This document shows positions 36,239-60,435 of a stretch of DNA of 64,000 nucleotides, one piece after another. This stretch comes from a virus: positions 1-64,000 of the IMG/VR virus record IMGVR_UViG_3300030450_002056. One strand, given 5' to 3'. Positions within the stretch are counted from its first letter, which is position 1. Each line of letters opens with the position of its first letter. Made by a program: the position numbers and the translations under genes. Below the pieces are notes generated by a model. It had not been told where the DNA came from. It saw nothing but the letters and a program-made list of their open reading frames with translations, and searched no databases.

Positions 36239-36646
36239 ATGAAGTGGTTTAATGTTTTTAAAGAAGATGTTGATGCACTTCCATTTGAGGAATTAGTAGC
36301 CCGTAGCAAATTGATGAATCAATATACAGTAAGTTTAGAAAAGAAATTAATAGCCCATATTCATGAACAATTAGATATTCATAAAAAATACTTAATTAAA
36401 TTAGTTGAAAAGTATAATGAAGAATTACCGGACACTTTAGAACCAATTAAAATACCAGACGGGTATCAAGTAATAGAATTGCCGAGCAATAAATATATGG
36501 ACAGAACCTTAAACAGAGAACAATATTATCAAATAGCAAACACTGAAACTATGGTTAATAGGATTGCAATGTATAATGTGCAAGTAATAATATTCAAAAA
36601 AATGATTGAGAATAAAGATATTCAAAGACAGGCAGGGTTAATATGA
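36239..36646 (+). CDS. Hypothetical protein with N-terminal W-tag (MKWFNVFK)
   Basis: ORF track. Confidence 0.6.
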   Translation: MKWFNVFKEDVDALPFEELVARSKLMNQYTVSLEKKLIAHIHEQLDIHKKYLIKLVEKYNEELPDTLEPIKIPDGYQVIELPSNKYMDRTLNREQYYQIANTETMVNRIAMYNVQVIIFKKMIENKDIQRQAGLI

Positions 36647-36906
36647 AACAATGGTTAATTAAAAAACTAATTGCTTTCATGGGCAATGCTTATGTTTGGC
36701 TCGATAAAAGAATAGAGCATGAAACAGGCCCAATTTTAGGATTAAAAATAGATGATGATTTTGAGGCTATGAGCCGATATGAATTATGTAATCACATTGA
36801 GGATAAATTTGGATTAGAAAGGGATTCATTTTGGTTATTACAATCAACTCAAAAAATTAGATTTTGCTGTCAGACGGCTAGGAATATATTGAATAAGGAT
36901 GATTAG
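36643..36906 (+). CDS. Hypothetical protein
   Basis: ORF track. Confidence 0.55.
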   Translation: MKQWLIKKLIAFMGNAYVWLDKRIEHETGPILGLKIDDDFEAMSRYELCNHIEDKFGLERDSFWLLQSTQKIRFCCQTARNILNKDD

Positions 36907-36957
36907 ATTTATTAGAGATTTACTATATGGAATATGGTGCTTAGGGAGATTTAGACC

Positions 36958-37356
36958 ATGAATTTAGTTAGTTGGGTAAAACGACAAATTAAGGAATTGC
37001 CTGATAATCTTACTATGTATGCTATTCCTTTTATGAGAGAAGAATTAACACCCGCAGTAATAGCACATCGAGATGAAAATAGAGAAAAATTATTAGATAT
37101 GTCTGAAAAGGAAAGAATAAAGTTTCTTAAGTTATTTGCTAGGAAATATATATTATCAGAATTGCCTAAATATAATTTAATGAGAACAAAAAATCGTCTT
37201 ATGAATAAAAGCAGTTGGTTTGACCAATTAAAAATGTCTGGTGCAGTAACAACAACTTCAGCAGGAACAAGTAATCTATTTAATAATCAATCAGTAATGG
37301 GGAGGTGTATTTGTGGCAAAGAAAGATGCAAAAAGTGTAACAAAAAAACAACCTAA
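36958..37356 (+). CDS. Hypothetical protein with an internal SWFDQLK tag and C-terminal Cys cluster
   Basis: ORF track. Confidence 0.55.
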   Translation: MNLVSWVKRQIKELPDNLTMYAIPFMREELTPAVIAHRDENREKLLDMSEKERIKFLKLFARKYILSELPKYNLMRTKNRLMNKSSWFDQLKMSGAVTTTSAGTSNLFNNQSVMGRCICGKERCKKCNKKTT

Positions 37357-38437
37357 GATTACAATGGGTAAAGGGACTTCCCGCGTTGAATACAAAGGAG
37401 AATCATTTGCCCAATTATGGAAAGAATGGGAAGATACTGCTAAAAGTATTAATGCAACTGATATGGGAATTAGTAGGTTTACAGGGAGTTTATATGAAAT
37501 GTTAGTTAAACATGGAATAGTGGGAAGAATAATGAAGAATTCTGGCCCTAAAGAAACTCCCGGAATTGGGAAGGAATTAAAGTTCTTAGCGAGTTTAGCA
37601 AAGAAGCCCAAATTTAAACCATCAGAGATGAAACAATTAGAAAGTATTGTTCAAACATTACAAACCTATGGTGGACAACAAAGCGATTTAAACCCAAGAA
37701 ATATAGCATTTGAAGGTGTTGTTAAAGTAAGGGGCAATAAAGCAATTAAGAAACCTATTTTCGGTCATTATCGAACAGATGCTTATGTTAAGTTCAGAGA
37801 AGCCGTTAAAGAAAAAGATGAATTAGATTCTGTGGATAGTTCATGGTGGTCAACTAACAAAGGAGAATCCACCCCTCCTATGTGGCAAGCAATTTATGGA
37901 GATGGAACTAAGGAACCGTTTACAACTAAGGGGTTAACTACTGTAGTTACAGAAGCGGTCAAAGGATTATTAAATGCAAAACACCATATTATTCAAAGTG
38001 ACCCTGTAGCAATAGAAAGTGCAGGTGCTGCTAAATTCGCATATGAAGGATTGTCCGAAGTAAAGACTGCTATGGATAGAATGGTAAATGACCCTCGCTA
38101 TACTACTAGAGCGGGCAATTTCTCATCAAAAGCCGCAAGGACTAGATTAATGAAGATACCATATAATGTCCGGAATAATAAAGAAAGTGAAAATGTTAAA
38201 ACATTATTGGCCGCAAAAGGAACTCCGGGTCAAATAGAAGACTTTTATATTTACATCTCAAGAAGACAACTCAATCATATGGCTAAATTAGCAGGTTGGA
38301 AACCCCATCCCGAATCTACATATATGAAAAATAAAGAGGCAGAAAAAGAAAAGCCTAAAGAAGATAAGGATGAGAAGTTAACAAGTGCTAATAGGGATGT
38401 TAAAGATTGGAGAACTGTAATGAAGGTGGTTGTTTAA
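37313..38437 (+). CDS. Basic hypothetical protein with C-terminal W-tag (DWRTVMK), putative virion protein
   Basis: 374-aa ORF; GGAGG RBS and GTG start. Confidence 0.7.
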   Translation: MAKKDAKSVTKKQPKITMGKGTSRVEYKGESFAQLWKEWEDTAKSINATDMGISRFTGSLYEMLVKHGIVGRIMKNSGPKETPGIGKELKFLASLAKKPKFKPSEMKQLESIVQTLQTYGGQQSDLNPRNIAFEGVVKVRGNKAIKKPIFGHYRTDAYVKFREAVKEKDELDSVDSSWWSTNKGESTPPMWQAIYGDGTKEPFTTKGLTTVVTEAVKGLLNAKHHIIQSDPVAIESAGAAKFAYEGLSEVKTAMDRMVNDPRYTTRAGNFSSKAARTRLMKIPYNVRNNKESENVKTLLAAKGTPGQIEDFYIYISRRQLNHMAKLAGWKPHPESTYMKNKEAEKEKPKEDKDEKLTSANRDVKDWRTVMKVVV

Positions 38438-39093
38438 TGGTAACGAGAAAAAGATGCGTAGTTTGTAACCACGATGATAGAGAGGGCATAGAAGATATGC
38501 TTGAAAATATGCAAATGGATGCAGATAACATTGATAGAGAGAATAATTGGCCCAGTGGCACTACATCTAGGCATCAAAGAAATCATATGGGTGATTATCA
38601 CAATTCTTCCAACCCAAAATGCGCTTTTTGCATAAGCCCTGCACGAATAGACCTTGAGCGGGAGATACATGAAGGTAGATTAGACACAAAAATGGTATCA
38701 GAAATGTTATTATGCTCAGAAGACCAAGTTTTACGGCACATAAGCAGACATTTACAGCCTTTAGTCCAAAAATCAGCCGCAAATATTATTGCACAAAAGC
38801 AAGTGGACGAAATTGCCACATTAGAACATAGCATTAACCGTTTAGACACCAAATTGGACGAATTATTTAACGAAGGTGGAACTGACCCTAAATATATTGA
38901 TAGTTTAACTAAGTTAGCAAGAGAAGTTAGGGAATCATTAAAATATGTTATGGAATTTAAGGGTAAATTGGTGCATCGAAGACAAGATACTGTTATTGTT
39001 GCCCAAATGCAAATTGTTCAAGAAGTATTAGCACAAAATCATCCACAAGTGTGGTTAGATGTTAAAAGTAAAATGGAGGAGAAGTTACAATGA
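38437..39093 (+). CDS. Putative terminase small subunit (duplicated CxxC...RH HTH/Zn units plus coiled coil)
   Basis: CVVCNH...SRHQRNH and CAFC...LRHISRH repeats, a helical oligomerisation segment, and position upstream of terL. Confidence 0.55.
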   Translation: MVTRKRCVVCNHDDREGIEDMLENMQMDADNIDRENNWPSGTTSRHQRNHMGDYHNSSNPKCAFCISPARIDLEREIHEGRLDTKMVSEMLLCSEDQVLRHISRHLQPLVQKSAANIIAQKQVDEIATLEHSINRLDTKLDELFNEGGTDPKYIDSLTKLAREVRESLKYVMEFKGKLVHRRQDTVIVAQMQIVQEVLAQNHPQVWLDVKSKMEEKLQ

Positions 39094-40208
39094 GTTGGGA
39101 AGATACAATAAAGATGCCAAAGCATCTAAAAAGAATTAAGCGCAAAATAGACCAAATGCCAGATTACGAAGTAGTTGAAATAGATGCACAAAGTAGTCAT
39201 GGTGGTAAAGTAGATTTTACAGAAACTGAAGAACATGAGAAACATGAAGATGAACCACATACTATTTATCCCCCTTCTACTCCCAAAGATAAAACCTATG
39301 GTAACTATATGAGGAAATTACCATCTATTATGCGTAGAGCGGCACAGGGTAGAAAGAGGTTTATGAATCAAAGTGGAAGACCGTTAGTAACAAAAGGTGA
39401 AAAAATGAATAATATAAGAAAGATGGCTGAGAGATTTGATTATCAATCTTTACCAGCAGACCTAAGAGAGCAAGTAGATGAATTTTATAGAGATGAAGCA
39501 ATAAAAGATGTTAAAGCAGAAGTTAAAAGAAGAGGAGTAAAGAAACTACAAGAAGGAACTGAAAGGACTTTAATCAGAATGTTAAATACGAGGAAATTTG
39601 AAAATGTATATTTAACTAGTAATAATTTAGAATTTAAAGGCCCATATTTAATTGGTGGTTATGATTTAACTAATCCTGTTGAAATGGCAGCATTTAACAA
39701 AGCACCAAGAAATGCTAAGTATTGGGCTAGTAAAGGGAAACCAATGCCAAAAAGAAAAGTGGAAGATGAAGAATTACCTGAATCATTTTATGATAAGATA
39801 TTTGCACAAGCAAAAATTATTGGTCATCCTATGCCATTTCCAAAAAGACGGCAATCAATAGAGAAATTAATTCAAGTTATTACTGACCATCAGAAAAATA
39901 AAATAAACGAATTAGACCAAACAGATGTTGAAGCAGTAGAAAAAGTAATAGAGATTTTGAGTAAAGATTATGAAGAATATGATTACACAGATGATTCAGG
40001 GCAAATGCAACAGGGCAGGGGTTCAAGCACTACAGGTATGAAAGGTAGACATCTTGATGAATTAAAATCATTATTAGGATTTCTCAAAGATAATGTTAAT
40101 GCAAAGAAATCTTGGAAGAAAACCCTAAAGTCTAATAAAAGTCTTGCTCAACATATTAAAGACATATTAGATGAAATGGGATATGATTCTTCTACAGTTA
40201 AAGTTTAG
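39090..40208 (+). CDS. Hypothetical protein with N- and C-terminal W-tags
   Basis: MSWEDTIK...SWKKTLK. Confidence 0.7.
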   Translation: MSWEDTIKMPKHLKRIKRKIDQMPDYEVVEIDAQSSHGGKVDFTETEEHEKHEDEPHTIYPPSTPKDKTYGNYMRKLPSIMRRAAQGRKRFMNQSGRPLVTKGEKMNNIRKMAERFDYQSLPADLREQVDEFYRDEAIKDVKAEVKRRGVKKLQEGTERTLIRMLNTRKFENVYLTSNNLEFKGPYLIGGYDLTNPVEMAAFNKAPRNAKYWASKGKPMPKRKVEDEELPESFYDKIFAQAKIIGHPMPFPKRRQSIEKLIQVITDHQKNKINELDQTDVEAVEKVIEILSKDYEEYDYTDDSGQMQQGRGSSTTGMKGRHLDELKSLLGFLKDNVNAKKSWKKTLKSNKSLAQHIKDILDEMGYDSSTVKV

Positions 40209-40218
40209 GTGAATTAAA

Positions 40219-41847
40219 ATGAATTGGTTTTCTGCGCTTAAGTCTGTTGAACCGCAGCCAGCGCAGCCTATCAAAAAAGGAGTCGAAGATTACTTAAACA
40301 GAATTATTACTGATGAGGGCCGAGATAATTTTATTGAAGAAATTAAACAAATTGAGAACACCCAATCTCTAGCATTAAAAAGAAATAATACTAAAAAAGC
40401 ACTTGAAGAGTTTATGGATAATAAAGACAAATATCCTCTATCTCAAGTTCCGGGATTTGAAGAGAGAGTTGTAGAAACTCTTGATATGTTGGAAGAGATG
40501 GGAACTACTAGTGCTAAATATGAACCTAGCATGGAAGCCGCAATAAAAGATTTGAATAGCGGTAAGGTAGATAAAATGTTAGGATTGCTTACTAAAGAAG
40601 TCGTCACAAGGAATAAAGAATATATTACAGCCGTAGTCAAGAAAAATAAGAACAAAATATTAAATGGTCTTAAGAAATTAAATGATACAGATAGAGAAAA
40701 GTTATCCGCAGTTCTCCAAGAGGAATACGGGTTTGGCGAACCAACAGAACCTAAGTATATGATGAGAAGTAATGTTAGTGCGAATAATATAAATGAATAT
40801 ATTAGATATGTTATTTTTGGTAATGTCCCAAGAGGATATAGAAAAGAATTACTTCCAGATTTAGGTGGTGTATTTGGTTCTAATTATACAGTATACCCAA
40901 GAGCACTTGAGTATATTTTAAAAGAATCTGAATTAAAATATGATGGTGGTGATTTTGAAATTCCACCTGCTAATGAATCTCTTGCTAAAATAAAAGCACT
41001 ACGCCTATTAAGGGATAATAAACAAGGCCAAGAACATTCTAATTTACAAACTAAAATGGCTAAAGCGCAAAAATATTACGCATCAAAAGAAAGGAAAGAT
41101 GTAAAGAATAAATTAAATAAAATAGAACTTCGATTTTTGAACGATTTAGATAATGAAGAAAAAAGACAGTTTGCTATTATGATTTCTAAACTTGATATTA
41201 GAGTGTATAATTTACCAATAGAAGATTATCACGCGTTAAATTATAAAGAGGATTATGCACACCTTACTGATAGTGTTGCCCAAGAATATGGATTTAAAGA
41301 CGGTCAAGATTTTGAAGAGTGGTTAGAGGATTCTCCAGAAAGAGAAGACGCGTGGGATAATATGTTAAAGAAATGGAAATCTGATGGTGGGGATGCTGGA
41401 GTTGTTAAACCTATGGTTCCAAGTGATGTTCCATTGTTATCTAAATTATTTAGTATATCTGATAGTGATATTAAACAGACGTTATTAGACCTTTATTCTT
41501 CTGGCCCAAATAAAACTACTGAAACGATTGATGCAAAACATAGACAATTCAAAGATATATTGTTAGTGTTGGATGATTTAGACGGAGATGAACCAACTAA
41601 GTTTTCAAGATTATGGAATAAGTTTCAAAGGCGAAACGCTAATGATGATAAATCTGAACTATTCAATGAAATGATGGAAGAACTAATAAATAATCATCAT
41701 TATCAGAAAATTAGAAATGATGTGCGTAAAGAAATTAATGATACAATTAAACATTTAGTTGAAACAAACTACTCCATTGGGAAGAAAGGGGTAATAGAAC
41801 CACTTGCCAAATTACAAAGTATAGGAGCACTACAGGTGATAACATGA
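40219..41847 (+). CDS. Large helical hypothetical protein (MNWFSALK), putative internal virion protein
   Basis: 542-aa ORF; AGGTGA RBS. Confidence 0.7.
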   Translation: MNWFSALKSVEPQPAQPIKKGVEDYLNRIITDEGRDNFIEEIKQIENTQSLALKRNNTKKALEEFMDNKDKYPLSQVPGFEERVVETLDMLEEMGTTSAKYEPSMEAAIKDLNSGKVDKMLGLLTKEVVTRNKEYITAVVKKNKNKILNGLKKLNDTDREKLSAVLQEEYGFGEPTEPKYMMRSNVSANNINEYIRYVIFGNVPRGYRKELLPDLGGVFGSNYTVYPRALEYILKESELKYDGGDFEIPPANESLAKIKALRLLRDNKQGQEHSNLQTKMAKAQKYYASKERKDVKNKLNKIELRFLNDLDNEEKRQFAIMISKLDIRVYNLPIEDYHALNYKEDYAHLTDSVAQEYGFKDGQDFEEWLEDSPEREDAWDNMLKKWKSDGGDAGVVKPMVPSDVPLLSKLFSISDSDIKQTLLDLYSSGPNKTTETIDAKHRQFKDILLVLDDLDGDEPTKFSRLWNKFQRRNANDDKSELFNEMMEELINNHHYQKIRNDVRKEINDTIKHLVETNYSIGKKGVIEPLAKLQSIGALQVIT

Positions 41848-44586: not shown

Positions 44587-45138
44587 ATGAAACTTACTCA
44601 AGAAGACATATATTTTGAAGATATGTCTGAAGAAAATGCCGTTAAGGTGTTTCAGGATGATGGGTATAGTGAATACAAGACTAGGATAAATAGATACAAA
44701 AAGTTACCTACAGATGGAATATTTGCTAATTCACCTGAAACACAATTTGTTGCGTTTTTAACAAAAACGGAACAACCAATTGGCGTAGTAGGTTTTTCTA
44801 AGTTTCAAAATTTCTTATTAGGTTCTGGCGTTCATGTTAGAAGGGGATATAGAAAAAGCGATGGATATGATGGAGTATTCGATTTGCTTCTTAATGAACT
44901 ATTAAAACAAAAAGGAAGTAAAACAATGGTGGTAGCCTTTTCACACCCTAAAGCAATGGAAAAATATAGGCAGTATGGTTTTAAAGAAATCAATGAAGAA
45001 AAATTGCCAGAAGATATTTTAGATGAATTAGAAGAAGCAAAGGCAAACGGCACTATTGGTGCATTACAAAAGTTGAAACTTAATAATTGGTGGATGACTC
45101 TTAAGCATGGCAATAAAGTATTAATATACAGGAGGTGA
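44587..45138 (+). CDS. GNAT-family acetyltransferase
   Basis: PIGVVG strand, VHVRRGYRKS...G motif A, and AMEKYRQYGFK motif B. Confidence 0.72.
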   Translation: MKLTQEDIYFEDMSEENAVKVFQDDGYSEYKTRINRYKKLPTDGIFANSPETQFVAFLTKTEQPIGVVGFSKFQNFLLGSGVHVRRGYRKSDGYDGVFDLLLNELLKQKGSKTMVVAFSHPKAMEKYRQYGFKEINEEKLPEDILDELEEAKANGTIGALQKLKLNNWWMTLKHGNKVLIYRR

Positions 45139-46582: not shown

Positions 46583-46599
46583 AGCGAAAGGTGAATAAG

Positions 46600-47961: not shown

Positions 47962-48016
47962 ATCCAAACATTGATATGCAATTGCCCTATCGTCTTGATA
48001 AGGGAGAGTGAACACT

Positions 48017-50051: not shown

Positions 50052-50056
50052 TTAAA

Positions 50057-50323
50057 ATGAGTTGGGAAGATACAATTAAAAGATTACCGGATGCTAGTTA
50101 TGTTAGCAATTTCCCTAAACCAAAGCAAAGTTTAATTGATAGGGCAAAAACAAATTTAGACCAAGAAAAAGCAGCAAGGCATCTTAGTGGTAGTTATGGT
50201 CAATGTAAAGTTAAAAGATGTGGTGCTACCACTTGTCGTTCAAACAAAGATATGCGATGTATGTTAGATGAAATTTATATTGATGATAACGGACATTGCC
50301 AACAATTTGTAAGGAAGGAATAA
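50057..50323 (+). CDS. W-tag protein (MSWEDTIK) with a Cys-rich DUF1540-like domain
   Basis: CGATTCRSNKDMRC...I.IDDNGHC. Confidence 0.6.
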   Translation: MSWEDTIKRLPDASYVSNFPKPKQSLIDRAKTNLDQEKAARHLSGSYGQCKVKRCGATTCRSNKDMRCMLDEIYIDDNGHCQQFVRKE

Positions 50324-50540: not shown

Positions 50541-51863
50541 ATGCCAGTTTTATCTAAAGCAGACCTCTTTAGGGAGATTTCCCTACCTGCTTCAGATGAA
50601 ATCAAAAAACAATTTAGCCCCAATGTTAAGAATATCTTAAGGAATGATTTAGGTATAGAACCACATTTTATTCGTAATTTAGAAAGGGCAGTAAATAACA
50701 CCCCAAATTCTTTTAAGGAGAAACTTAGAAGACAATTCAAAGATAGCGATTTAATGGTTGTTCCTTCTAAAAAAGGAAAATATATGCATTTCCCTGAGAA
50801 GTATGGAAAAAACCACCCTACTCATGCGGGTGAATACAAACCTAAAGTTATGGATAATGATAGTCTTATTGTTGCTATTAATGGGTATATTGATGTATTT
50901 GAAGGAATATTAGAAGAAGTAAGTAAGATTCCATTAGAAATGAAACTTAGAGTTTTAGAAGGTCAATTAGAAAACCCAGATAGTATTCGTGAATATGTTA
51001 GTGATGGTGTAGCAGATTTATTAATTGAAAGCCCTAGAACATATGACCAAATAGATACAGCAACAAGAACATTAAAGGTATTTTTGAAGCGCATTAAGAG
51101 AAATATAAAACCTGAAAAGGAATCTTTTGTTGGTTTTAATAAAGCCTTAAAAAAAGCAATTAAGGAATATTCCATAAGTGACTTAAAAGAAAATTGGCAT
51201 GGTTCTTATTCAGAATTTGCAAATGCATTTGGATTTTCTTCACAAAAAACCGTTAATGTGTTTTTAAAGAATTATGAAGATGGTAAATTAGCAGTAGAAA
51301 CTCTTGCTATTTTGAATGAAGAATTCGATGGGAAAGAAGGAATAGAGATATTTAAAGAAATGTTAAAAGAAGTAGGTATGAAAACAAGAAGTTTCAAATT
51401 TACAGAAGAAACTAAAGTTCAGGATTACTTTAATATTAGTTTATCTAAGTTATTGAAAGAAATAGAAAAGGCCTCAAACCCTAGTGCTGGATTTGGAGAA
51501 ATTAAATATTTTTTTAGATTAAAAGAAAATACCTTTTTGGATTATGGAGAAACAGTCGAAATGAGATTACTTGATTTATTAGATGATAAAGAAGAAGTAG
51601 AATACTATTACAATGTTACTCCTGATACAAATGAAGAGGATAAACAAGGCATTGCTGATTTAAAAGATGAAACATATCAGGCTGAAATAAAGGTAACAAC
51701 AAGGCAATATGCTTTCATGTATTACATTGGTAAGTTAAGGGATTTAAAATTGGATAGTTCTTTATTGACTAATGATATTTCTGATGATTATTCAGAAGAT
51801 AAATTAGAAGAGAAATTTAAATATGTTAAAGAGGCATTTGAAGAAATGGGGGAAAAAGAATGA
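50541..51863 (+). CDS. Large hypothetical protein in the head module
   Basis: About 440-aa ORF. Confidence 0.65.
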   Translation: MPVLSKADLFREISLPASDEIKKQFSPNVKNILRNDLGIEPHFIRNLERAVNNTPNSFKEKLRRQFKDSDLMVVPSKKGKYMHFPEKYGKNHPTHAGEYKPKVMDNDSLIVAINGYIDVFEGILEEVSKIPLEMKLRVLEGQLENPDSIREYVSDGVADLLIESPRTYDQIDTATRTLKVFLKRIKRNIKPEKESFVGFNKALKKAIKEYSISDLKENWHGSYSEFANAFGFSSQKTVNVFLKNYEDGKLAVETLAILNEEFDGKEGIEIFKEMLKEVGMKTRSFKFTEETKVQDYFNISLSKLLKEIEKASNPSAGFGEIKYFFRLKENTFLDYGETVEMRLLDLLDDKEEVEYYYNVTPDTNEEDKQGIADLKDETYQAEIKVTTRQYAFMYYIGKLRDLKLDSSLLTNDISDDYSEDKLEEKFKYVKEAFEEMGEKE

Positions 51864-52405
51864 GTTGGAAAGAGATATTAAAAGCAGATGAATTTTGCGA
51901 TGAATGTGGAGATAGAATTAAAGATGGAGAATCTTATACTGTTGAGTCTATGCCCAAAGATTTTCATTCGGGCAAGAAAGGAGAAAGTGCAACCCTTTGT
52001 GAGAATTGTTATAATGAATTAGATTTGCCTACTAAAGATTGGACTAAAGACCTTGACCCTTTCTTATTTATGCCAGATAAAAAGAAAACACTCGAAAAGG
52101 CAGATATTGGTCTTCTTTCTAAATTAGAAGGTAAAGAGAAAAAGAGATTAAAGAAAGTATTACAGTCTGCTCAACCAACTGAATACTTTGGGCAGGATTT
52201 AACTAAACTATCTAATTTAATAGATGAAATGCAAAAGTTAGATTTGATTAAGTCTGATGAAAAATTATCTAAGAAGATGAAAGGCTTTGAAGAAACTAAT
52301 TTAGATATTGTAGCATCTGCCGCAGAATTAAGAAAGGACTATGAAACTCTATACAATCAATTGAGAGGGATTGTATATCCAAAAAGTAAAGGTGATATGA
52401 AATGA
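51860..52405 (+). CDS. W-tag protein (MSWKEILK) with Zn finger and helical C-terminal domain
   Basis: CDEC...LCENC. Confidence 0.65.
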   Translation: MSWKEILKADEFCDECGDRIKDGESYTVESMPKDFHSGKKGESATLCENCYNELDLPTKDWTKDLDPFLFMPDKKKTLEKADIGLLSKLEGKEKKRLKKVLQSAQPTEYFGQDLTKLSNLIDEMQKLDLIKSDEKLSKKMKGFEETNLDIVASAAELRKDYETLYNQLRGIVYPKSKGDMK

Positions 52406-52626
52406 GTTGGAAAGATAATTTAAAGAAGTATTCAATACCATCAATGATGTTGGTAGATTTCATGAGATATACTCAAGATTTAGCAAAGTATTCAACTAGT
52501 CTGTCAAAAAATACACTAGAGAAGGGGATGGATAACATGACAGAGGAAAAATTAGAACGACTAGGAGAGTTTGCAAAAAAGGTTCTAGATGAAATAGAGT
52601 TACTAAAAAGAAGTGGTCTGAAATGA
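52402..52626 (+). CDS. W-tag protein (MSWKDNLK)
   Basis: ORF track. Confidence 0.6.
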   Translation: MSWKDNLKKYSIPSMMLVDFMRYTQDLAKYSTSLSKNTLEKGMDNMTEEKLERLGEFAKKVLDEIELLKRSGLK

Positions 52627-52919
52627 GTTGGGAAGATGTTGTCAAAAGGGTTGGGCCTACTAGGGTAAGAATGTTCTATAATGCGAAGAGAAGACAATCT
52701 AGCACTAATGAACATCTTAAGAGAATTGAAAGAAAACTTGATGAGTTGTATAAGGAACTAGAGGTGTTAGATGGCAAGGATGTTGCTGATATTTCTGCTG
52801 AATATTTAACAGACGAAATGTTAGAGAAACTTAACCTTCTAGGTTATGCTGAAGTTGAATTACAGTCGATATCTAATGCTTTGGAGATAGGTAAAACTCC
52901 ACAGGAATTTGGTGAGTAA
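52623..52919 (+). CDS. W-tag protein (MSWEDVVK)
   Basis: ORF track. Confidence 0.6.
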   Translation: MSWEDVVKRVGPTRVRMFYNAKRRQSSTNEHLKRIERKLDELYKELEVLDGKDVADISAEYLTDEMLEKLNLLGYAEVELQSISNALEIGKTPQEFGE

Positions 52920-52920
52920 A

Positions 52921-53349
52921 ATGAGTTGGAAAGAAATATTAAAAGATGTTAAAAGTGAACTTAAGGAAATGTTTAATGACGAAAAGGTAATAGAAAGGTA
53001 TGATGCAGTGGGTGATGCTGAGAAAGAAATGGTAGAATCACTAATGTTTGTTCCTTCTAAATTTCCTGACAGGGATAAAAGAGTCAGACAGGCTATTTAC
53101 GCTGTGCTTGGTTTAGACTCATACAAAGAATATCCCGAAACTAAATCAGCACCAGATTACCTTGAAGAAAAAGATAAAGAATTTCTTGCGCTAGACTCAT
53201 TATATGAAGAGTATCAAGAGAAAGGAAGAAAAATACTTGAAAAAATTTGGGATGAAAACCCATTTGATGAGAATTCAAGAGAATTTCGTGATTTAGAAGG
53301 AATGTTGGATAGAGAATACGAAGCACATGGAATAAAGCCGCAATACTAA
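52921..53349 (+). CDS. W-tag protein (MSWKEILK)
   Basis: ORF track; GGTGAG RBS. Confidence 0.6.
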   Translation: MSWKEILKDVKSELKEMFNDEKVIERYDAVGDAEKEMVESLMFVPSKFPDRDKRVRQAIYAVLGLDSYKEYPETKSAPDYLEEKDKEFLALDSLYEEYQEKGRKILEKIWDENPFDENSREFRDLEGMLDREYEAHGIKPQY

Positions 53350-53359
53350 GGTGATTAAA

Positions 53360-53560
53360 ATGAGTTGGAAAGAAATATTAAAAGAAATGTCAGATGATGA
53401 CTTAAAAGAACAGTATGATGAAATGCTAGATGAAATATATCCGGAGATTAAAATAGGCACACTTACCTTTTCTCCATCTAGGGTGCTTAGGGAATTAGAC
53501 CCTACAGCATATAGAATAGGATTAAGTGAATATGAAGATTCCTTAATGGAGGATGAATAA
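53360..53560 (+). CDS. W-tag protein (MSWKEILK), acidic
   Basis: YDEMLDEIYPEIKIGTLTFSPSRVLRELDPTAYR; AGGTGA RBS. Confidence 0.65.
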   Translation: MSWKEILKEMSDDDLKEQYDEMLDEIYPEIKIGTLTFSPSRVLRELDPTAYRIGLSEYEDSLMEDE

Positions 53561-53561: not shown

Positions 53562-53792
53562 ATGACGGAAGAAAATGAAATGTTAATGCTCTTGAAAGAG
53601 TTAGTTGAAAAAGTGAAAAGTTTAGAAGAAACGGTGTATAACCAAGATAACCTATTAATGAAATCAGGTTATGTTAAAGTCAATACTCCTAAACCAATGA
53701 TGGGCAATAATACTGCACCAACGGGTGATATAATTTCTAAGATGGAATGGGACGATATACATAAAATCGTTGAGCAAATAGGAGGCAATTGA
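53562..53792 (+). CDS. Small coiled-coil protein whose C-terminus (MEWDDIH) resembles the scaffold C-terminus
   Basis: Compare MSWGDIH at the end of 57117-58307. Confidence 0.6.
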   Translation: MTEENEMLMLLKELVEKVKSLEETVYNQDNLLMKSGYVKVNTPKPMMGNNTAPTGDIISKMEWDDIHKIVEQIGGN

Positions 53793-54531: not shown

Positions 54532-54540
54532 AGTGATATT

Positions 54541-57087
54541 GTGGCTATATCTGGCGTTTCCTTTGAAAAAGAAAAAAATGCGCTATCCAAGCGTGTTTTA
54601 GATTTCTTTGAGAGGACTCGCTATTCTTATTTATCTGCGAAAGAAGACCCAAATAAATATGGTAAAAAATGGAGAGCAACAGTTAAGTCTATTCGTGAGT
54701 CATTTGATGGCTTAGATTCTTTTACTAGAGTATTGAAGAAATACATTGATGAAGACGCAGTATTTGATGATAATGTAGAAGACCCTAATTCAACTCAAGC
54801 CAAGCGACTATATGATGCGATTAAAGAAATGAGGTTTCAATCTGAAGAAGTTTCTGACCCATTCGCTAATCAGTTGGGTGAAGAAGTAATTGATGTATTA
54901 CTCAATAATTCTAGTGTCTTTGCGGCCTTTATTCACTATGCCCTTCGCAAACATTCCCTCCCTATCCCTGCATCGGCATGGAAAAAACACGGCCTTAAGC
55001 CCGATGAAATAACTCAAAATGCCAACGGATTAGATTTAGAGATGAAAGATATACCCTTATACATTTCAGAACACTATGGGGAAGATAAAGACACTAAGCG
55101 TATCAAAACCAAATTTAAAAGCGTTTTGTCTATCCTAAAGAAAGTGTTTCTTGAGGAATATAGCGAAAAAGAATGGGATGCTCTAATTGATATAGATATT
55201 AAAAAGTCTGAAAAGAGTTCAGATGAGAAGTCTGAGATTAATTTCCTAACCCCTAATAAACCAATGTATCGAATATTTGAATTAAAAGACTTAGAGCAAT
55301 TGAAAGGTTTTTCTGGTGAATATGTAGTTCAAGAAAAATATGATGGTATGAGAGTGCAAATCCATAAAAATGGTAAAACCATTAAAATTCTTTCTTATAA
55401 CCAAAAAGATATTTCTGATAAATGTCCAGAGCAAATAGAAAGATTGCGTGGAAAGGAAATAGGGAACTGTATCTTAGATGGAGAGTTAATGATATTTAAG
55501 AACGGTAAAGCATTACATAGGGCCGCTACAATTTCACACATTTTTAAGAAGCCTATTGAAGATAGCCAATTAAGACTTCATGTTTTTGATATTATGGAAC
55601 ATGATGATAAAGATTTAATAGATGAACCTTTGAGGGAAAGAATTAATATTCTGTTATATCAATATGCTCAACATTCATCTGAAGAATTAGCATATCCTTC
55701 AAAGAAAGACACTAGAATTGCAGATTCTATAAAAGAAGTAGGGGATTATTCTGAAGAAATAATGAATCTACCCGCTTCTGAAGGTGTGGTTATTAAAGAT
55801 ATTGAATCTACATATCAATTAGGTTCAAGGAAAAATCCTAAGTGGGTTAAATGGAAGAAATTTGTTGATTTAGATGTTATTGTCTTGGATGATAAAACAA
55901 CAAAGAGTGGTCTTCATTCATATACTTTAGGTATTGGCCCATTATCCGCAGAACAAGCCCGTTCTTATAAGACTGTAGAATTGAAAGATAAAGCATATCT
56001 TTCTGTAGGTAAAGCACTAAACACTAAGCAATCCGTTAAGGTGGGTAGTATTGTTAGAGTTAAGGTGGATGAGGTAAAGAAGACTAAAGAGGGTTTTAGT
56101 TTATTCTCAGCGAAAGTTATTGAAATTCCTGAAGTGACTCAATCAGATAAATTAGAAACTTTAGAGTTATTATCAGACAAAGCCAAAAAATCAATTTGGG
56201 AAGATTTAGATAAGCCGTTTAAATATAAATTAAAAGGCGTAAAGAAAATGTATATTACTGATGAAATACATGGGGAAGCAGAAATTCTTATGAAATCTAA
56301 TTTAGATGGATTTACTATTTACGGTTTTAATGGTGATAGTTTAATGGAGAAACAAGCCCTATACGATATAGATGTTTGGAAAGAAGATTTACAAATTGCA
56401 CTTAAAAGTGTTCGTTCTGAGTTAAGAATGGCTATTAAAAATAAATTAATTGAGTGGGAAGAACCTGTAGAATTTGATAAAATACAAGAGTTTGTGTTAG
56501 AAAATTATATTGACCATTTTAAAGGGCCGGCATTTAATAGTGATGTAAAGAAATTAAAGAAGTGGTTAATTAGGCAAGAAGATATTGTTTATCATCGCAC
56601 TAATGATATATTTTCAGTGAACCCTACTGATATAGCAAAGGATGAAAAGGTTAATCCAAAAGAAGGTAAATTTACAATTACAACTACTGAAGATGATAAC
56701 TTATTATTAATTTATGTTGTAAATGATAAAAGGTTAGCGTGGTTAATAGATATTGAAGATTCTTCTGATATTTATAACTTATTTGGTAAATCTAATAAAT
56801 TTCCTGCTAAAATTGTTTTGGGTAATGCTAGAGAAAGTAAAATATTAGATAAAGGAATTATTACTCTTGGTGTTCAAAGGGACGGTTATCACGAATTTAA
56901 ATTAGCAGGTGATAAATTTGATACTAGATTGCATATTAGGGTTGTTCCTTTAAATGATGAAAAACATTGGGTAGTTTGGACAGGAAAGAAACAAACTATG
57001 CTAGAATCAAAGGATGACGATGGTTTGTGGGATATTACCGAAGATAGATATAAAAATTTACCCCTGCCCGAAGGCAATCCCGCTTAG
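54541..57087 (+). CDS. Second ATP-dependent DNA ligase-domain protein within the head module, with long N- and C-terminal extensions
   Basis: QEKYDGMRVQIH, ILDGEL, VFDIM, EGVVIK, WVKWK, OB domain; located immediately upstream of the prohead protease. Confidence 0.85.
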   Translation: MAISGVSFEKEKNALSKRVLDFFERTRYSYLSAKEDPNKYGKKWRATVKSIRESFDGLDSFTRVLKKYIDEDAVFDDNVEDPNSTQAKRLYDAIKEMRFQSEEVSDPFANQLGEEVIDVLLNNSSVFAAFIHYALRKHSLPIPASAWKKHGLKPDEITQNANGLDLEMKDIPLYISEHYGEDKDTKRIKTKFKSVLSILKKVFLEEYSEKEWDALIDIDIKKSEKSSDEKSEINFLTPNKPMYRIFELKDLEQLKGFSGEYVVQEKYDGMRVQIHKNGKTIKILSYNQKDISDKCPEQIERLRGKEIGNCILDGELMIFKNGKALHRAATISHIFKKPIEDSQLRLHVFDIMEHDDKDLIDEPLRERINILLYQYAQHSSEELAYPSKKDTRIADSIKEVGDYSEEIMNLPASEGVVIKDIESTYQLGSRKNPKWVKWKKFVDLDVIVLDDKTTKSGLHSYTLGIGPLSAEQARSYKTVELKDKAYLSVGKALNTKQSVKVGSIVRVKVDEVKKTKEGFSLFSAKVIEIPEVTQSDKLETLELLSDKAKKSIWEDLDKPFKYKLKGVKKMYITDEIHGEAEILMKSNLDGFTIYGFNGDSLMEKQALYDIDVWKEDLQIALKSVRSELRMAIKNKLIEWEEPVEFDKIQEFVLENYIDHFKGPAFNSDVKKLKKWLIRQEDIVYHRTNDIFSVNPTDIAKDEKVNPKEGKFTITTTEDDNLLLIYVVNDKRLAWLIDIEDSSDIYNLFGKSNKFPAKIVLGNARESKILDKGIITLGVQRDGYHEFKLAGDKFDTRLHIRVVPLNDEKHWVVWTGKKQTMLESKDDDGLWDITEDRYKNLPLPEGNPA

Positions 57088-57116
57088 TTCATATAGTGAA
57101 AGGTGAAGTGTAGTTT

Positions 57117-58307
57117 ATGTTAGAGCGGCCAGTTCTAATGAAGCAAGAAACTAAAGACTTCACAATACTAAAGTCAGATGATTTAATTATAGGTGGATAT
57201 GCTTCAATAGAAATGGTAGATAAGCAGAACGATTTAATTACTTTACAAGCATTACAAAAAGCAGTTAAAGATTACATGGGAGAAAAGAAATTCAGAAATG
57301 TAATGTCTAATCATTCAAATGTTCAAGTAGGAGAAGTAGTAGATTCTTATAGAGATAAGAACGGAGTAGTCCATAAATCTCAAGTTGATGATGTAGGATT
57401 TTATGTTGTTATTAAATTAAGAGATGATATTGAAAAAGCCAAAGAAATATCAAGAGGAATTAGAAAAGGCACATTACGTTCATTTAGTATAGGAGGACAA
57501 GCGATTTCAAAACGCAAAAGAAAATCAAATGATTTTGGCGAATATAATGAAATTGATGAGTTAGAGTTGCATGAAGTCACAATTTGTGAAAAAGGAATAA
57601 ACCCAGAAGCAAAGTTTGATATATTAAAAGAAGAAAAAAACAAAGGTGAAAAAATGACTGAAAAATTGGAAAAAGCCCTTGAGGAGTTAAATGACCTGAT
57701 GAAACAGGTTAATGAACTCCAAAAGGAAGAAGAAACGCCACTTGAGGCAGACATGGAATACATGGCTACTGAAGGTGAAGCCGAAGAAGAGTTGGAATTA
57801 TCCGATGACTCTTTAGGCGAAGATGAAGCAGAAAAAGCACTGGATGAAGATAGCACCCGTGATTATGAAGCCGGAGAAGAAGTAGTAAGTGGCGGAACGC
57901 CAACTGCAACACCTGCTCCACTAAAGGTTTCAAAAGAGTGGGATTCGTCTGAATTCACTACGCTTGACTTATCTGTTGAGAATGTCGAAAAGGCATATGA
58001 ACAGTTTAAGGCAGAACAACTAGAAAAGATTGCTTATGATAGTATGAATAAGCACTTTGAGAGCAGGTTTGCTACAGAGCAATCCATTAGAAAGGCATCT
58101 GTTGAGCGAAATGAATATGACGCTCGTTCAGAAGTAGCCGAACTAAAAGAACAGTTCGCAGACCTACGCAAATCATTAACAACAGAAAATTCGCAAATAG
58201 TAAAAGAGGAATCAACAGTTTCTCTACCGGATGGTTTTCCAACCACATCTGAAGAATTATCTTCGATGAGTTGGGGAGATATTCACAACTTAGCGAGGAA
58301 ATTTTAA
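57117..58307 (+). CDS. HK97-type prohead protease fused to an acidic scaffold domain
   Basis: IGGYAS, VDKQND, catalytic H (SNH), SFSIGG, ELHEVT, GINPEA; acidic coiled-coil C-terminal half. Confidence 0.9.
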   Translation: MLERPVLMKQETKDFTILKSDDLIIGGYASIEMVDKQNDLITLQALQKAVKDYMGEKKFRNVMSNHSNVQVGEVVDSYRDKNGVVHKSQVDDVGFYVVIKLRDDIEKAKEISRGIRKGTLRSFSIGGQAISKRKRKSNDFGEYNEIDELELHEVTICEKGINPEAKFDILKEEKNKGEKMTEKLEKALEELNDLMKQVNELQKEEETPLEADMEYMATEGEAEEELELSDDSLGEDEAEKALDEDSTRDYEAGEEVVSGGTPTATPAPLKVSKEWDSSEFTTLDLSVENVEKAYEQFKAEQLEKIAYDSMNKHFESRFATEQSIRKASVERNEYDARSEVAELKEQFADLRKSLTTENSQIVKEESTVSLPDGFPTTSEELSSMSWGDIHNLARKF

Positions 58308-58319
58308 GGAGATGAAAAA

Positions 58320-59696
58320 ATGACTGGATATACAAACACATTAAAAGACTTAGAAGCCGCAACATACGGATTAACTGGCCCTGCTGGTAATGCTCTACTA
58401 AAGAGTTCTGGTGTTGTTGGTGGATTCGGAACGCCCCATGATGCGGCATCAAACCCGTTTAGTGCCGCTAGTGGATTAGGCGACTTATACAACGTTCTTT
58501 ATGGACAGAAAGTATGGTCTATGTTAAATCAAGAGGTTAACCCTCTTTCTATCTTAGCAAAGAGGCCTTACACTTCAAGCGGTTGGAGGGTTCTAAAGAG
58601 CCGACCTACTGGTGGTAGTGGTTCTTCGTTTACAACAGGTTCAACTGCTGTAGCCGCAAATACTGCTGATTTATCTACTCCACGACCAGACCAAATTGGT
58701 GGTGTTGAGGAAAATGCTTCATTAGACGGTGCAAATGGATTTAGGCCATTATCACCCGAATACGCTAAACTATATGTTAGCCCTAAGACTGTTGCACATC
58801 TATTTGAGTTCTCAGAACTTGGAATGGAATTAGCAGCCATTGATGACGGAGTAGGCGATATTCGTGCTATTATCCGTGAGGACATGGGTAAGCATCACGC
58901 AGAAACACAGAGCAAGATGTTAGTAATGCCGTTTGAAAACTATGATGACGGAACTGCAACAGACATTGAGAGAAACTACACTTCTCTACTAAAGATTGTA
59001 TCTTCAGCAGCAGAAATCGCTGCAATGTATAATGCTAACTTACTAAACACAGGCGCAAACAACGGAGATAACTCCGCAGTAGTTGCTGATGTAAAGAATA
59101 TCTTTGGAACATCAAGAACAGTAACTATTTCGTCTAACGCTGCAACAGGAACTGCATCTTACTTAGATGCTGAAGTTGACTTCGGTGATGGATATGCGGC
59201 TGGTGATGCTAGGGTTCTAACTCTAAGTATGCTAAATAGCATGATTCGCAGAATCCGCCAGAACGGTGGAAACCCGAAGTGCATCCTAACAGGCTATGAT
59301 ACAATTCAGCACATTGCTGACTTGCTACAGAGTCAAGAGCGATTTATGGATAGGAAAGAGATTGTTCCTACTCATAATGGTGTAAAAGGCGTAAAGGGAA
59401 CTGAGGCTGGATTTAGAGTAGCAACTTACTTTGATATACCATTAATCCCTGCAAAGGACATGGGTTCAACGGGTGCTAACACTACAAACACCCTAAGTGA
59501 CTTATTGTTCTTAGACACAGACCATATGTGGCTATCTGTTATGAAGCCTACTCAATACTTTGAGGATGGTATTAGCAACGGAAACCCATTTGGTGTTGGA
59601 AAACTAGGGAATCAGGGTATGTATCGCACAATGGGCGAAACTTGCTGCTCTTTCTTCAAGGGACAGGGTAAAATAACCAACATTAAGAGTGCGTGA
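58320..59696 (+). CDS. Major capsid protein (HK97 fold)
   Basis: Follows the protease; Gly/Ala-rich 458 aa; codon usage suggests high expression; LYGQKVW, GGNPKCILTG and DIPLIP motifs as in archaeal tailed-virus MCPs. Confidence 0.88.
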   Translation: MTGYTNTLKDLEAATYGLTGPAGNALLKSSGVVGGFGTPHDAASNPFSAASGLGDLYNVLYGQKVWSMLNQEVNPLSILAKRPYTSSGWRVLKSRPTGGSGSSFTTGSTAVAANTADLSTPRPDQIGGVEENASLDGANGFRPLSPEYAKLYVSPKTVAHLFEFSELGMELAAIDDGVGDIRAIIREDMGKHHAETQSKMLVMPFENYDDGTATDIERNYTSLLKIVSSAAEIAAMYNANLLNTGANNGDNSAVVADVKNIFGTSRTVTISSNAATGTASYLDAEVDFGDGYAAGDARVLTLSMLNSMIRRIRQNGGNPKCILTGYDTIQHIADLLQSQERFMDRKEIVPTHNGVKGVKGTEAGFRVATYFDIPLIPAKDMGSTGANTTNTLSDLLFLDTDHMWLSVMKPTQYFEDGISNGNPFGVGKLGNQGMYRTMGETCCSFFKGQGKITNIKSA

Positions 59697-59707
59697 GGTG
59701 ATTAAGA

Positions 59708-60061
59708 ATGGCTTTAGCATATACAGTAACATTGCTTGCTGACCATAAGGGTGTAACAACCCCAAAGGTCATGGGTGATGAATACATGGTGGATGCATTA
59801 ATTGATGTAACGTCTATTGTAGCGGCAGGTTCAGTAATACCTGCCTCTGCATTAGGCCTATCATCAGTTCACGCTGTTTCGATAACTGGCTCTGACAATG
59901 CTAATGCAGTATTGCCTTTAGTAGAGATTAGTGCCGCAGGTGCTTATGAGAGTGGAACATCTTTTGCTCTCATGTTTACAGCATTAGACGGAACTAACGC
60001 TACTTTGGCTAATGACGCTAATGGCGGCTCTGTTAGAGTAAGAGTTTGGGGAAACCTTTGA
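59708..60061 (+). CDS. Putative capsid decoration/minor structural protein
   Basis: Beta-rich, Ala/Gly/Thr-rich; lies between the MCP and a terminator. Confidence 0.55.
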   Translation: MALAYTVTLLADHKGVTTPKVMGDEYMVDALIDVTSIVAAGSVIPASALGLSSVHAVSITGSDNANAVLPLVEISAAGAYESGTSFALMFTALDGTNATLANDANGGSVRVRVWGNL

Positions 60062-60094
60062 CTCTGATAACTGAAAATTAAACCATAATAATAC

Positions 60095-60141
60095 GCGGCT
60101 TCATTCCCCCCTTAATTGGGGGGAGTGGGTCGCACTTTTTT
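60095..60141 (+). terminator. Hairpin plus U-tract after the capsid operon
   Basis: GCGGCTTCATTCCCCCC-TTAATT-GGGGGGAGTGGGTCGC-ACTTTTTT. Confidence 0.7.
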
Positions 60142-60156
60142 ATCAAGGTGAAAAAA

Positions 60157-60435
60157 ATGAACTGGAAAACTATATTAAAAATAAGTGAAGGTGAAACATC
60201 TGACTTTAGTCGATTTGGGCAACCTGAATGGGATGAAGGTTTAGAAGAAATAAAGGGTAATAAAGAAAGAGAAGCCCTTAAATGGGTATTAGAACAACGC
60301 CCTAAATATGCAGCCAAGTTGAAAGAGTCTGAGCATAAGCAATTGATTGCTCAATTAGCACTTATGGCAAGAAGTTTAGAAGGTAAACATCAAAAAAAGA
60401 TGTTAGCAACTATTCATGGTGTTCTAAAAAATTAG
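60157..60435 (+). CDS. W-tag protein (MNWKTILK)
   Basis: ORF track; AGGTGA RBS. Confidence 0.6.
   Translation: MNWKTILKISEGETSDFSRFGQPEWDEGLEEIKGNKEREALKWVLEQRPKYAAKLKESEHKQLIAQLALMARSLEGKHQKKMLATIHGVLKN

Follow-up and report, generated by a model that had tools for sequence, protein, structure and literature searches.

Unrelated proteins encoded among the head genes of a marine magrovirus carry at their N-termini a common tag, M-S-W-[EQKF]-[DEN]-[ITV]-[LIV]-K, which is a short amphipathic-helix motif. Sequence comparison supports the view that the tag is a portable terminal label of otherwise unrelated proteins, working at the protein level. It resembles the conserved C-terminal tail of the viral scaffold, and is therefore most likely a capsid-loading label; we consider it reasonably probable that it mimics the scaffold tail and targets cargo to the procapsid, by analogy with the capsid-targeting sequence (CTS) of phage T4.

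In the surface ocean, magroviruses belong to the most abundant archaeal viruses, and no function is known for the majority of their genes. The genome of about 95 kb analysed here, of which the window is a stretch of 64,000 nucleotides, has the features of this group (Magrovirales): replication genes of archaeal type (PolB, ATP-dependent ligase), a second ligase and a homing-endonuclease position in the structural module, and a halovirus-like prohead protease (description used for comparison, PMC5434244). The endonuclease position is occupied by ORF 46591-47961, which has no Pfam match. The published magrovirus papers examined do not mention the tag.

Occurrence of the tag in the genome and in related loci

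Over the whole genome (95,498 bp) M-x-W-x-x-x-[LIVF]-K is found at the N-terminus of 11 ORFs, all on the + strand, which is the late one, and spanning positions 36239 to 60157 (Table 1), each start being preceded by a Shine-Dalgarno sequence of the GGTGA/GGAGG type. No further N-terminal tag is present in the 95,498 bp, the minus (replication) strand included, and the tagged ORFs are restricted to the head module. With automatic gene calls, W...[LIVMF][KR] within the first 12 residues was found in 10 ORFs, the eleventh (36239) being missed because its call began at an upstream TTG; 2000 residue shuffles gave a chance expectation of 0.27 tagged ORFs on average and 3 at most.

Table 1. Copies of the tag, related peptides and the probable nested scaffold gene (positions in the window)
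Feature	Position	Strand	Context
Tag MKWFNVFK	36239..36262	+	135-aa ORF 36239-36646; weaker variant, position 7 is F
Internal SWFDQLK	37213..37233	+	ORF 36958-37356; next come MSGAVTTTS...LFNN, Cys-rich sequence and a basic tail
C-terminal tag DWRTVMK	38405..38425	+	Conserved 374-aa protein (37313-38437), 4 residues from its end
Tag MSWEDTIK	39090..39113	+	372-aa ORF 39090-40208
Second, near-C-terminal SWKKTLK	40110..40130	+	39090 protein; candidate copy
Tag MNWFSALK	40219..40242	+	542-aa ORF 40219-41847
C-terminal tag NWWMTLK	45085..45105	+	GNAT-like protein adjoining terminase (44587-45138)
Tag MSWKDILK	49665..49688	+	Acidic 128-aa ORF 49665-50051
Tag MSWEDTIK	50057..50080	+	Cys-rich 88-aa ORF 50057-50323
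Tag MSWKEILK	51860..51883	+	Zinc-ribbon-like 181-aa ORF 51860-52405
Tag MSWKDNLK	52402..52425	+	74-aa ORF 52402-52626; ATGA overlap of start with upstream stop
Tag MSWEDVVK	52623..52646	+	98-aa ORF 52623-52919; ATGA overlap of start with upstream stop
Tag MSWKEILK	52921..52944	+	Acidic 142-aa ORF 52921-53349
Tag MSWKEILK	53360..53383	+	66-aa ORF 53360-53560
MEWDDIHKIV	53742..53771	+	Near C-terminus of conserved 76-79-aa "mini-scaffold" (53553/53562-53792)
WRATVK	54670..54687	+	Residues 44-49 of structural-module DNA ligase; possible internal tag, low confidence
Probable nested scaffold gene	57654..58307	+	Within protease-scaffold ORF; ATG 57654, GGTGA 57645
C-terminal tail MSWGDIHNLARKF	58266..58304	+	S78 protease-scaffold fusion (57117-58307)
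MTGYTNTLK	58320..58346	+	MCP N-terminus; tag-like, Y for W and one extra residue
Tag MNWKTILK	60157..60180	+	92-aa ORF 60157-60435

The comparison set consisted of 160 related IMG/VR loci. In two counts, the tag was found on 170 + strand ORFs out of 1431 and on 439 out of about 1700, falling into 63 and 156 BLAST-unrelated clusters respectively, and the other strand carries none. At least 150 families of soluble proteins without BLAST relationship to each other begin with the tag in these loci, ranging from 52 to 870 aa with a median of about 105 aa. Tagged genes occupy two variable zones, one upstream of the terminase and one between the portal and the ligase, and their sets differ even between genomes with 93% MCP identity. 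Within the window, the 49665-50051 gene has no nucleotide match in the nearest relatives, and at the 60157 ORF the relatives show neither a nucleotide match nor a tagged gene downstream of the MCP; the zinc-ribbon-like family of ORF 51860 is widespread in relatives, its N-termini being the tag or near variants. Almost all tagged families lack a Pfam domain: Pfam and PHROGs searches yielded almost nothing for the 11 tagged proteins of the window and almost no functional annotation for 150 tagged representatives.

A preliminary description of this DNA, made from the sequence alone, had listed 11 N-terminal positions and about 15 tagged proteins in total, with unrelated sequences behind the tag and no copy in the replication arm, and had proposed a motif scan over related genomes. 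All 11 positions were recovered, the total is a fair count, the whole-genome scan found no copy on the minus strand, and the scan of the 160 loci shows the terminal tag recurring on + strand ORFs in front of at least 150 clusters without BLAST link.

Tandem gene arrays, in which many of the products are of similar small size, could also reflect a single fast-evolving paralogous family, the N-terminus being a homotypic oligomerisation helix or the best-kept piece of a common fold; the near-exclusive use of AGT for Ser2 is consistent with copying by descent. The spread of lengths and the number of clusters without BLAST link make such a family quite unlikely, as does the presence of the motif at the C-termini of a GNAT-like protein, a 374-aa protein and the scaffold. 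The 53360 protein argues in the same direction. Its residues 9-62 are homologous to small untagged proteins of many bacterial phages, the similarity beginning at residue 9, directly past K8. The body is 61% identical to proteins of rV5-like phages, which lie in a block of small unnamed genes, and it also matches gene 2 of the T7-like Proteus phage PM16, located just behind annotated early promoters. The domain occurs in three forms, untagged, tagged, and tagged with a linker. Structure prediction models the tag as a short helix set apart from the body, this being the one fold behind a tag in hand; for this domain, Protein Atlas and fold searches returned uncharacterised phage proteins only and no PDB fold.

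Since W, I and L lie on one helical face with Lys flanking, the peptide might instead bind a membrane or surface and bring late proteins to a membrane site of assembly or egress. Genes for membrane proteins are indeed found just downstream of the MCP, and 132 of the 1023 untagged ORFs there have TM-like segments. Eight residues are however very short for stable binding, membrane affinity would be unexpected in the scaffold of a tailed virus, and TM segments were found in only 1 of 529 tagged proteins; we regard membrane binding as very unlikely.

Conservation of the tag at the protein level

Among 170 ORFs starting with M.W, K8 is kept in 146 and [LIV]7 in 159. The K8 codons are AAA (100) and AAG (47), in the same proportion as the background, all six Leu codons are in use at position 7, and synonymous change within the tag is as frequent as in the codons downstream. 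This comparison indicates that selection is on the peptide, W3, the hydrophobic residue 7 and K8 being kept while synonymous sites drift. Of 116 Ser2 codons, 115 are AGT, a nucleotide bias that weighs against the capsid-loading reading; AT-rich 5' codons and ATGA stop-start overlaps account for only part of it.

The preliminary description had named purely DNA-level conservation as one of the findings that would speak against it. Conservation mainly of DNA or RNA, as a translation-start context and/or a recombination handle for cassette swaps with an incidental peptide, has several observations on its side: ATGAGTTGG recurs, A begins codon 2 in 94% of tags, Ser2 has the bias just described, ATGA stop-start overlaps occur at four tags of the window, and in-frame fusions are found exactly at tags, where gene content turns over. 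Nevertheless the synonymous sites of codons 4-8 vary ordinarily while the amino acids are held or conservatively replaced, and the motif is also found at C-termini and in the scaffold. The codon analysis largely refutes this as the sole explanation and leaves it highly improbable as the main one, though a role in recombination could coexist with a function of the peptide.

The near invariance of Lys8 in N-terminal tags (146 K vs 2 R) would also suit a site recognised by some modifying or regulatory machinery, be it acetylation of Lys8 by the tagged GNAT, a ubiquitin-like conjugation or a host factor, which would steer the stability or timing of late accessory proteins and have no role in encapsidation. 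With a hydrophobic residue in front of it and, in many tags, E/D at the second position behind it, the Lys loosely recalls psi-K-x-E sites, and the GNAT-like gene, consistently found next to the terminase, itself bears the motif. We consider modification unlikely, given that the Lys is missing in the scaffold tail, that Arg is frequent in C-terminal copies, and that modification would explain neither why the tag is confined to the head module nor how it is linked to the scaffold.

C-terminal copies and the scaffold tails

Four near-C-terminal copies, in ORFs 36958, 37313, 39090 and 44587, had been given in the preliminary description, together with the endings of the protease-scaffold and of ORF 53553/53562. 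All of these are present, and the two endings read as quoted and are kept in all relatives. Diverged orthologues validate two of the four copies: those of the 374-aa protein hold [SDN]W.x[IVM][LIVM]K in their last ~10 residues, and those of the GNAT-like protein end with [SKN]W[WFMK]..[LIVM][KR] plus 0-10 residues, both copies surviving the divergence of the flanking sequence. Some GNAT orthologues are fused in frame with the next tagged ORF, the junction being at the tag. The Pfam GNAT match of the 44587-45138 protein is weak. The copy in ORF 36958-37356 corresponds in relatives to the N-terminal tag of a separate ORF of ~48 aa, and for the copy in the 39090 protein a family of only 4 members was found.

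Two further peptides were considered. In the structural-module ligase W[KRS].[TI][VI]K is kept in nearly all orthologues; one match of the WRATVK kind in a protein of the size of a ligase is not improbable by chance. The MCP N-terminus is conserved as M[ST]GY[IT].T[IVLM]K and was set aside as probably not a tag because some lineages have A, T or R instead of K.

The scaffold tail, [ED]MSW[GDES]D[IVL]H, is found in every relative and persists to ~37% identity, with W386 and H390 invariant in 33 sequences. Residues 386-395 are predicted by AlphaFold2 to form a terminal helix, in a model of the protease-scaffold that is poor (pLDDT 49.5) and usable for the C-terminal helices only. The mini-scaffold clusters with the C-terminal part of the scaffold, and its tail, M[DSE]W[DE][DE]I[HR]K, is kept throughout the relatives as well as in the sister group. 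Stand-alone scaffold proteins of the library start at residues 180-184 of the protease-scaffold query. Among the matches listed, homologues of the protease are close relatives only, and the most distant scaffold homologue tried, P0177, had no relatives in IMG/VR.

The tag and the tails of the protease-scaffold and the mini-scaffold have the core M-S-W-x-D-I in common. Positions 7-8 are H-N/A in the scaffold version vs L-K in the cargo version, and because of this difference the scaffold tail and the cargo tag may not share one site. No covariation between scaffold tail and tag variants was seen across lineages, both being too conserved. In the sister magrovirus group the scaffold tails are kept, and tagged ORFs number 12 of 969 and 3 of 188, vs 244 of 1431 in the present group. 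Since that group has the tail without tagged genes, the motif seems to have resided in the scaffold tail first. Halovirus HVTV-1, the nearest cultured relative, has neither the tag nor an MSW tail.

Proposed capsid loading and comparison with known systems

In the capsid-loading reading that we favour, the scaffold tail would dock within the procapsid during assembly, the MCP being the likeliest partner and the scaffold core or the portal less likely ones. Late-expressed soluble proteins bearing the peptide at a free terminus would co-assemble into the head, the payload being a large and quickly exchanged set of mostly small orphan proteins together with the C-terminally tagged GNAT-like enzyme and 374-aa protein, and the packed proteins would enter the next host cell along with the DNA. 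Loading may even be open-ended: acquiring an eight-residue version of the scaffold tail, at one end or the other, would suffice for any soluble protein to be packaged and to travel with the DNA, and the clade would thereby have gathered at least 150 unrelated cargo families, among them enzymes and proteins found in early-type gene blocks of bacterial phages. To this wider form we give slightly less than even credence; it would be the first capsid-targeting code recognised in archaeal viruses, and no broader one is known. The load would be heavy, with 11 cargo species per genome, some of them 370-540 aa long in this virus and as long as 870 aa in relatives, and this was counted against loading.

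The preliminary description had proposed an address label that loads a variable payload, is clipped after Lys and delivers effectors. Its portability, confinement to the head module, likeness to the scaffold tail and fast turnover are borne out by the sequences; the other two elements fared less well. Removal of the tag after Lys8 by the S78 prohead protease is doubtful. The Lys at position 8 is absent from the scaffold tail and is K or R in the C-terminal copies, where cutting would achieve little because only 1-13 residues follow. I-L-K also occurs at residues 17-19 and 169-171 of the protease; these were set aside as cleavage sites since the S78 domain (Pfam match, residues 24-174) includes or borders them and they may be conserved for structural reasons. 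No S78 relative for comparison came out of a sequence search of the PDB. The effector role is a guess, because the 150 representatives yielded so little annotation.

The CTS of T4 has about 10 residues, the last of which form the gp21 site L/I-x-E, and its presumed target is the scaffolding core of gp22. It is a short, portable N-terminal peptide common to unrelated proteins encoded with the head genes (IPI-III, Alt), whose payload is diverse between related phages (PMC3012670). The magrovirus tag is likewise short and N-terminal, on unrelated proteins encoded with head genes, with a polymorphic payload. The two peptides however have no sequence similarity and the magrovirus protease is of the S78/HK97 type, so that the tag is an analogue and not a member of the T4 system; moreover the magrovirus peptide resembles the scaffold's own tail, occurs at C-termini too and is found on at least 150 families in the clade and 11 proteins per genome.

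Coat-binding C-terminal tails are present in P22 gp8, HSV-1 UL26/UL26.5, lambda C/Nu3 and HK97 gp4. The magrovirus protease-scaffold fusion, with its probable nested scaffold gene and conserved terminal helix, is of the same design, but there only the scaffold or protease bears the tail, whereas in the magrovirus its core is found on dozens of accessory proteins. Encapsulins offer a third parallel, in that a short N- or C-terminal peptide loads unrelated cargo into an HK97-fold shell, as the magrovirus tag would; the cargo peptides are unrelated in sequence. Encapsulins are cellular compartments, with one type of cargo in nearly all cases (PMC8229669).

Should the tag prove to be a capsid address, a first functional label, as virion-delivered, would fall to about a tenth of the genome and to at least a quarter of the ORFs near the head genes. 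The scaffold-coat contact would have been copied into a cargo system, and the eight residues of the tag would make a minimal label for loading an HK97-fold shell. The tagged proteins would then also be a candidate list of host-takeover or counter-defence factors for the uncultured Poseidoniales.

Genomic context and occurrence of the tag

The window makes up the first 64 kb of one 95,498-bp contig, in which a minus-strand arm (1-31 kb) carries a family-B DNA polymerase, an archaeal-type ATP-dependent ligase and a ribonucleotide reductase. Magroviruses, whose hosts are Marine Group II (Poseidoniales) archaea, are described as having two ligases, one of them within the structural module, and halovirus-like head genes (PMC5434244); the ligase pair and the head genes of the window fit this description. 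By protease, the closest cultured relatives are the haloarchaeal siphoviruses HVTV-1 and HCTV-1/5 (28-29% identity). The GNAT-like gene occupies the position expected for a small terminase, and its label derives from a Pfam score of 21.1 bits (E 3e-4) against a curated cut-off of 23.6. Upstream of it lies a conserved orphan without Pfam match, which has V-Y-[FHY]-[LVI]-K-A-x-[FY]-R at its C-terminus in all relatives; this end is possibly a further terminal motif, or the protein may be an ejection or internal protein.

Features of the window discussed in the text
Feature	Position	Strand
Basic-tail peptide family member	37213-37356	
374-aa protein	37313-38437	
912-aa orphan protein	41844-44582	
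GNAT-like protein	44587-45138	
Large terminase	45143-46582	+
Portal	48008-49663	+
66-aa tagged protein (53360)	53360-53560	
Mini-scaffold	53553/53562-53792	
Second ATP-dependent ligase (structural module)	54541-57087	+
Internal ligase motif	54670-54687	
S78/HK97-type prohead protease fused to scaffold	57117-58307	+
GGTGA and ATG within protease-scaffold	57645-57656	
SU10-like major capsid protein (MCP)	58320-59696	+

A peptide of the form M-x-W-x-x-x-[LIVMF]-K, here called the tag, opens 11 ORFs, all on the plus strand from 36239 to 60157; a six-frame scan of the whole genome found none outside this interval or on the other strand. Since a Shine-Dalgarno sequence (GGTGA/GGAGG) precedes each of the 11, these starts are regarded as true N-termini. 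Among the automatic gene calls, W...[LIVMF][KR] falls within the first 12 residues of 10 ORFs, 36239 being absent as its call began at an upstream TTG, and residue shuffling gave a mean of 0.27 tagged ORFs and a maximum of 3 (2000 trials). Every peptide and protein ending quoted in the preliminary description was found in place.

Tagged genes in related viruses

The 80 IMG/VR loci centred on MCP (72-98% identity) contain 142 tag-starting ORFs, every one of them on the MCP strand, and a further set of 80 loci centred on the terminase contains 439. Clustered with the first ten residues cut off, these ORFs fall into 63 (MCP loci) and 156 (terminase loci) clusters without mutual BLAST link. A rival reading, descent from a diverged paralogous family, would account for part of the data. 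The exact pattern occurs in at least 120 IMG/VR stretches, with magrovirus-like core genes wherever these are present in the fetched piece, about a dozen short pieces having no recognisable gene. The tag is a hallmark of the clade. It was not found in HVTV-1, and the published magrovirus descriptions examined do not mention an N-terminal motif.

Lengths of the tagged proteins run from 52 to 870 aa, with a median of about 105, and the proteins range from acidic to basic. A membrane-like segment is present in 1 of 529 tagged ORFs versus 132 of 1023 untagged ORFs near MCP, figures to be set beside the proposal that the tag is a membrane-binding helix, which also covers part of the data. None of 150 tagged representatives has a convincing Pfam domain, and a handful match PHROGs, of unknown function in nearly all cases. 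Tagged genes are found in two zones, the portal-to-ligase interval and the stretch 1-10 kb upstream of the terminase, where they make up close to half of the ORFs in places. ORF 60157 of the window is unusual, since no tagged gene lies downstream of MCP in the relatives. Gene content of the zones varies even among genomes with 93% identical MCPs, and nucleotide matches to window genes 49665-50323, 52402-53549 and 60157 are absent from the closest loci.

Of 170 ORFs chosen merely for an M-x-W start, 146 have K at position 8, 159 have L/I/V at position 7 and 162 have I/T/V/A at position 6; positions 4-5 are chiefly E/Q/K/F and D/E/N, and there is no conservation from position 9 onward. Part of the data could be explained by a start or recombination element acting at the DNA level. 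The AAA:AAG ratio of Lys8 equals the background, Leu7 uses all six codons, and in orthologous pairs synonymous change is as common in codons 7 and 8 as in the next codons. The target of selection is the peptide, not the DNA. Codon 2 is biased: its first base is A in 94% of tags, and 115 of 116 Ser2 codons are AGT. ATGA stop-start overlaps, seen at four of the window's tags, account for this first A. A general preference for A/T-rich codons near starts accounts for part of the remaining bias, and copying of the tag through descent or recombination may contribute as well. The third residue is not always W (variants include MWFEELK, MTDWFSTIK and MISDWFVTLK), and the core can therefore be written as W-x-x-x-hydrophobic-K close to a free end.

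Behind its tag, the 66-aa protein at 53360 has a body that matches PHROG 9294 (E 2e-19), and residues 9-62 of this protein share 61% identity with small hypothetical proteins of E. coli rV5-like phages, with weaker matches in Pseudomonas, Vibrio, Campylobacter and T7-like Proteus phages. The homologue in Proteus phage PM16 is gene 2, directly behind annotated early promoters, and in phage slur16 it is one of a series of small hypothetical genes. When metagenomic homologues are aligned, those of magrovirus type open with the tag and others directly with the conserved domain, and three members have the tag, a 20-30-residue linker and then the domain. In the AlphaFold2 model (pLDDT 88), residues 12-64 form a compact body, from which the tag stands apart as a short helix modelled with lower confidence; the model matches no solved fold. 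Judged from these sequences, the tag is portable. The family also spans Clavibacter and Gordonia phages, and the similarity of its 57-residue body across host domains is unusually high for a protein of unknown function. In three loci (L129:7360, L153:8168, L155:6323) the GNAT-like gene and the next tagged zinc-ribbon ORF are fused in frame exactly at the tag, and thus tags are also points of gene fusion or fission.

The scaffold tail and other terminal copies

All relatives end the protease-scaffold in [E/D]-M-S-W-[GDES]-D-[IVL]-H-x-[LIF]-x-R, with W386 and H390 invariant, and this tail is retained in homologues down to about 37% identity. It is modelled, in a poor model overall, as a terminal helix behind a long coiled-coil-like helix. 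The conserved mini-scaffold (76-79 aa) clusters with the C-terminal part of the scaffold, and its end, M-[DSE]-W-[DE]-[DE]-I-[HR]-K-[IML]-V, is intermediate between scaffold and cargo forms. The conserved 374-aa protein keeps [SDN]-W-x-x-[IVM]-[LIVM]-K in its last ten residues despite an otherwise diverged tail, and the GNAT-like protein adjoining the terminase has retained [SKN]-W-x-x-x-[LIVM]-[KR] at its extreme end. Relatives have the apparently internal copy of ORF 36958 as the tag at the N-terminus of a small ORF of its own, which encodes a basic-tailed peptide. This family (e.g. L084:2549) consists of the tag, M[ST]G[AT]V[ST]TTS...LFNN and a highly basic KRRGKKKK-like tail and looks like a DNA-binding internal peptide; the window member is Cys-rich and in frame with ORF 36958.

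Within the protease-scaffold ORF, GGTGA precedes an ATG at residue 180, a methionine conserved or replaced by L/I in relatives, and stand-alone scaffold proteins in the protein library start at this point. The arrangement suggests that a scaffold gene is nested in the ORF, like those of lambda C/Nu3 and HSV UL26/UL26.5.

The sister magrovirus group, with a protease-scaffold 42% identical to that of the window, keeps M-[ST]-W-[DEA]-[DE]-[IV]-H on scaffold and mini-scaffold alike, and the variable tagged genes are absent from it. Around its protease the relaxed tag pattern matches 12 of 969 plus-strand ORFs versus 4.4 by shuffling, eight of the 12 being one family (MSDFFEVLK); upstream of the terminase-position gene beside the portal it matches 3 of 188, compared with 244 of 1431 in the window's group. 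The scaffold tail is therefore more widespread than the tags, and the simplest reading would be that the tail came first and the N-terminal tags are a later, lineage-specific copy. Between mini-scaffold region and protease the sister group has a giant ORF of ~1800 aa (L352:4548-9965, L306:4516-9930, L285:4389-9941), in the slot of the 848-aa ligase of the window's group.

A possible procapsid signal

In well-studied tailed phages (P22, lambda, HK97) and the herpesvirus HSV-1, the scaffold or prohead protease grips the coat protein by its C-terminal tail. Polymorphic internal proteins of T4 are loaded via a short common N-terminal capsid-targeting sequence (PMC3012670). The most economical reading, towards which we lean slightly, is that the magrovirus lineage copied its own scaffold tail onto many late-expressed soluble proteins, which would thereby be incorporated into the procapsid; we infer the binding and its partner as well as packaging, delivery and the function of the cargo. 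If true, this reading would explain the terminal position of the tag, its restriction to the head module and the strand of that module, its presence on unrelated, fast-exchanged genes, and the fact that a family which bacterial phages encode in early-type gene blocks is here a tagged late gene.

The preliminary description proposed that the shared terminal W-x-x-x-[LIV]-K is a capsid cargo-loading label clipped after Lys, and the clipping is the weakest part. Lys8 is strongly retained in N-terminal tags, and I-L-K occurs at protease residues 17-19 and 169-171, both within the S78 domain or bordering it, the second directly ahead of the probable nested scaffold start. The scaffold tail lacks Lys at the position equivalent to Lys8, and the C-terminal copies have Lys or Arg followed by only 1-13 residues. 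Lys8 as a site of modification or regulation would explain part of the data; this and the paralogous family, the membrane-binding helix and the DNA-level element each fail to accommodate the link to the scaffold, the copies at C-termini or the synonymous variation.

Residues 44-49 of the structural-module ligase match W-[KRS]-x-[TI]-[VI]-K, a conserved motif. Should it be a working tag, the ligase itself could be a packaged enzyme, which would account for its odd location among the head genes.
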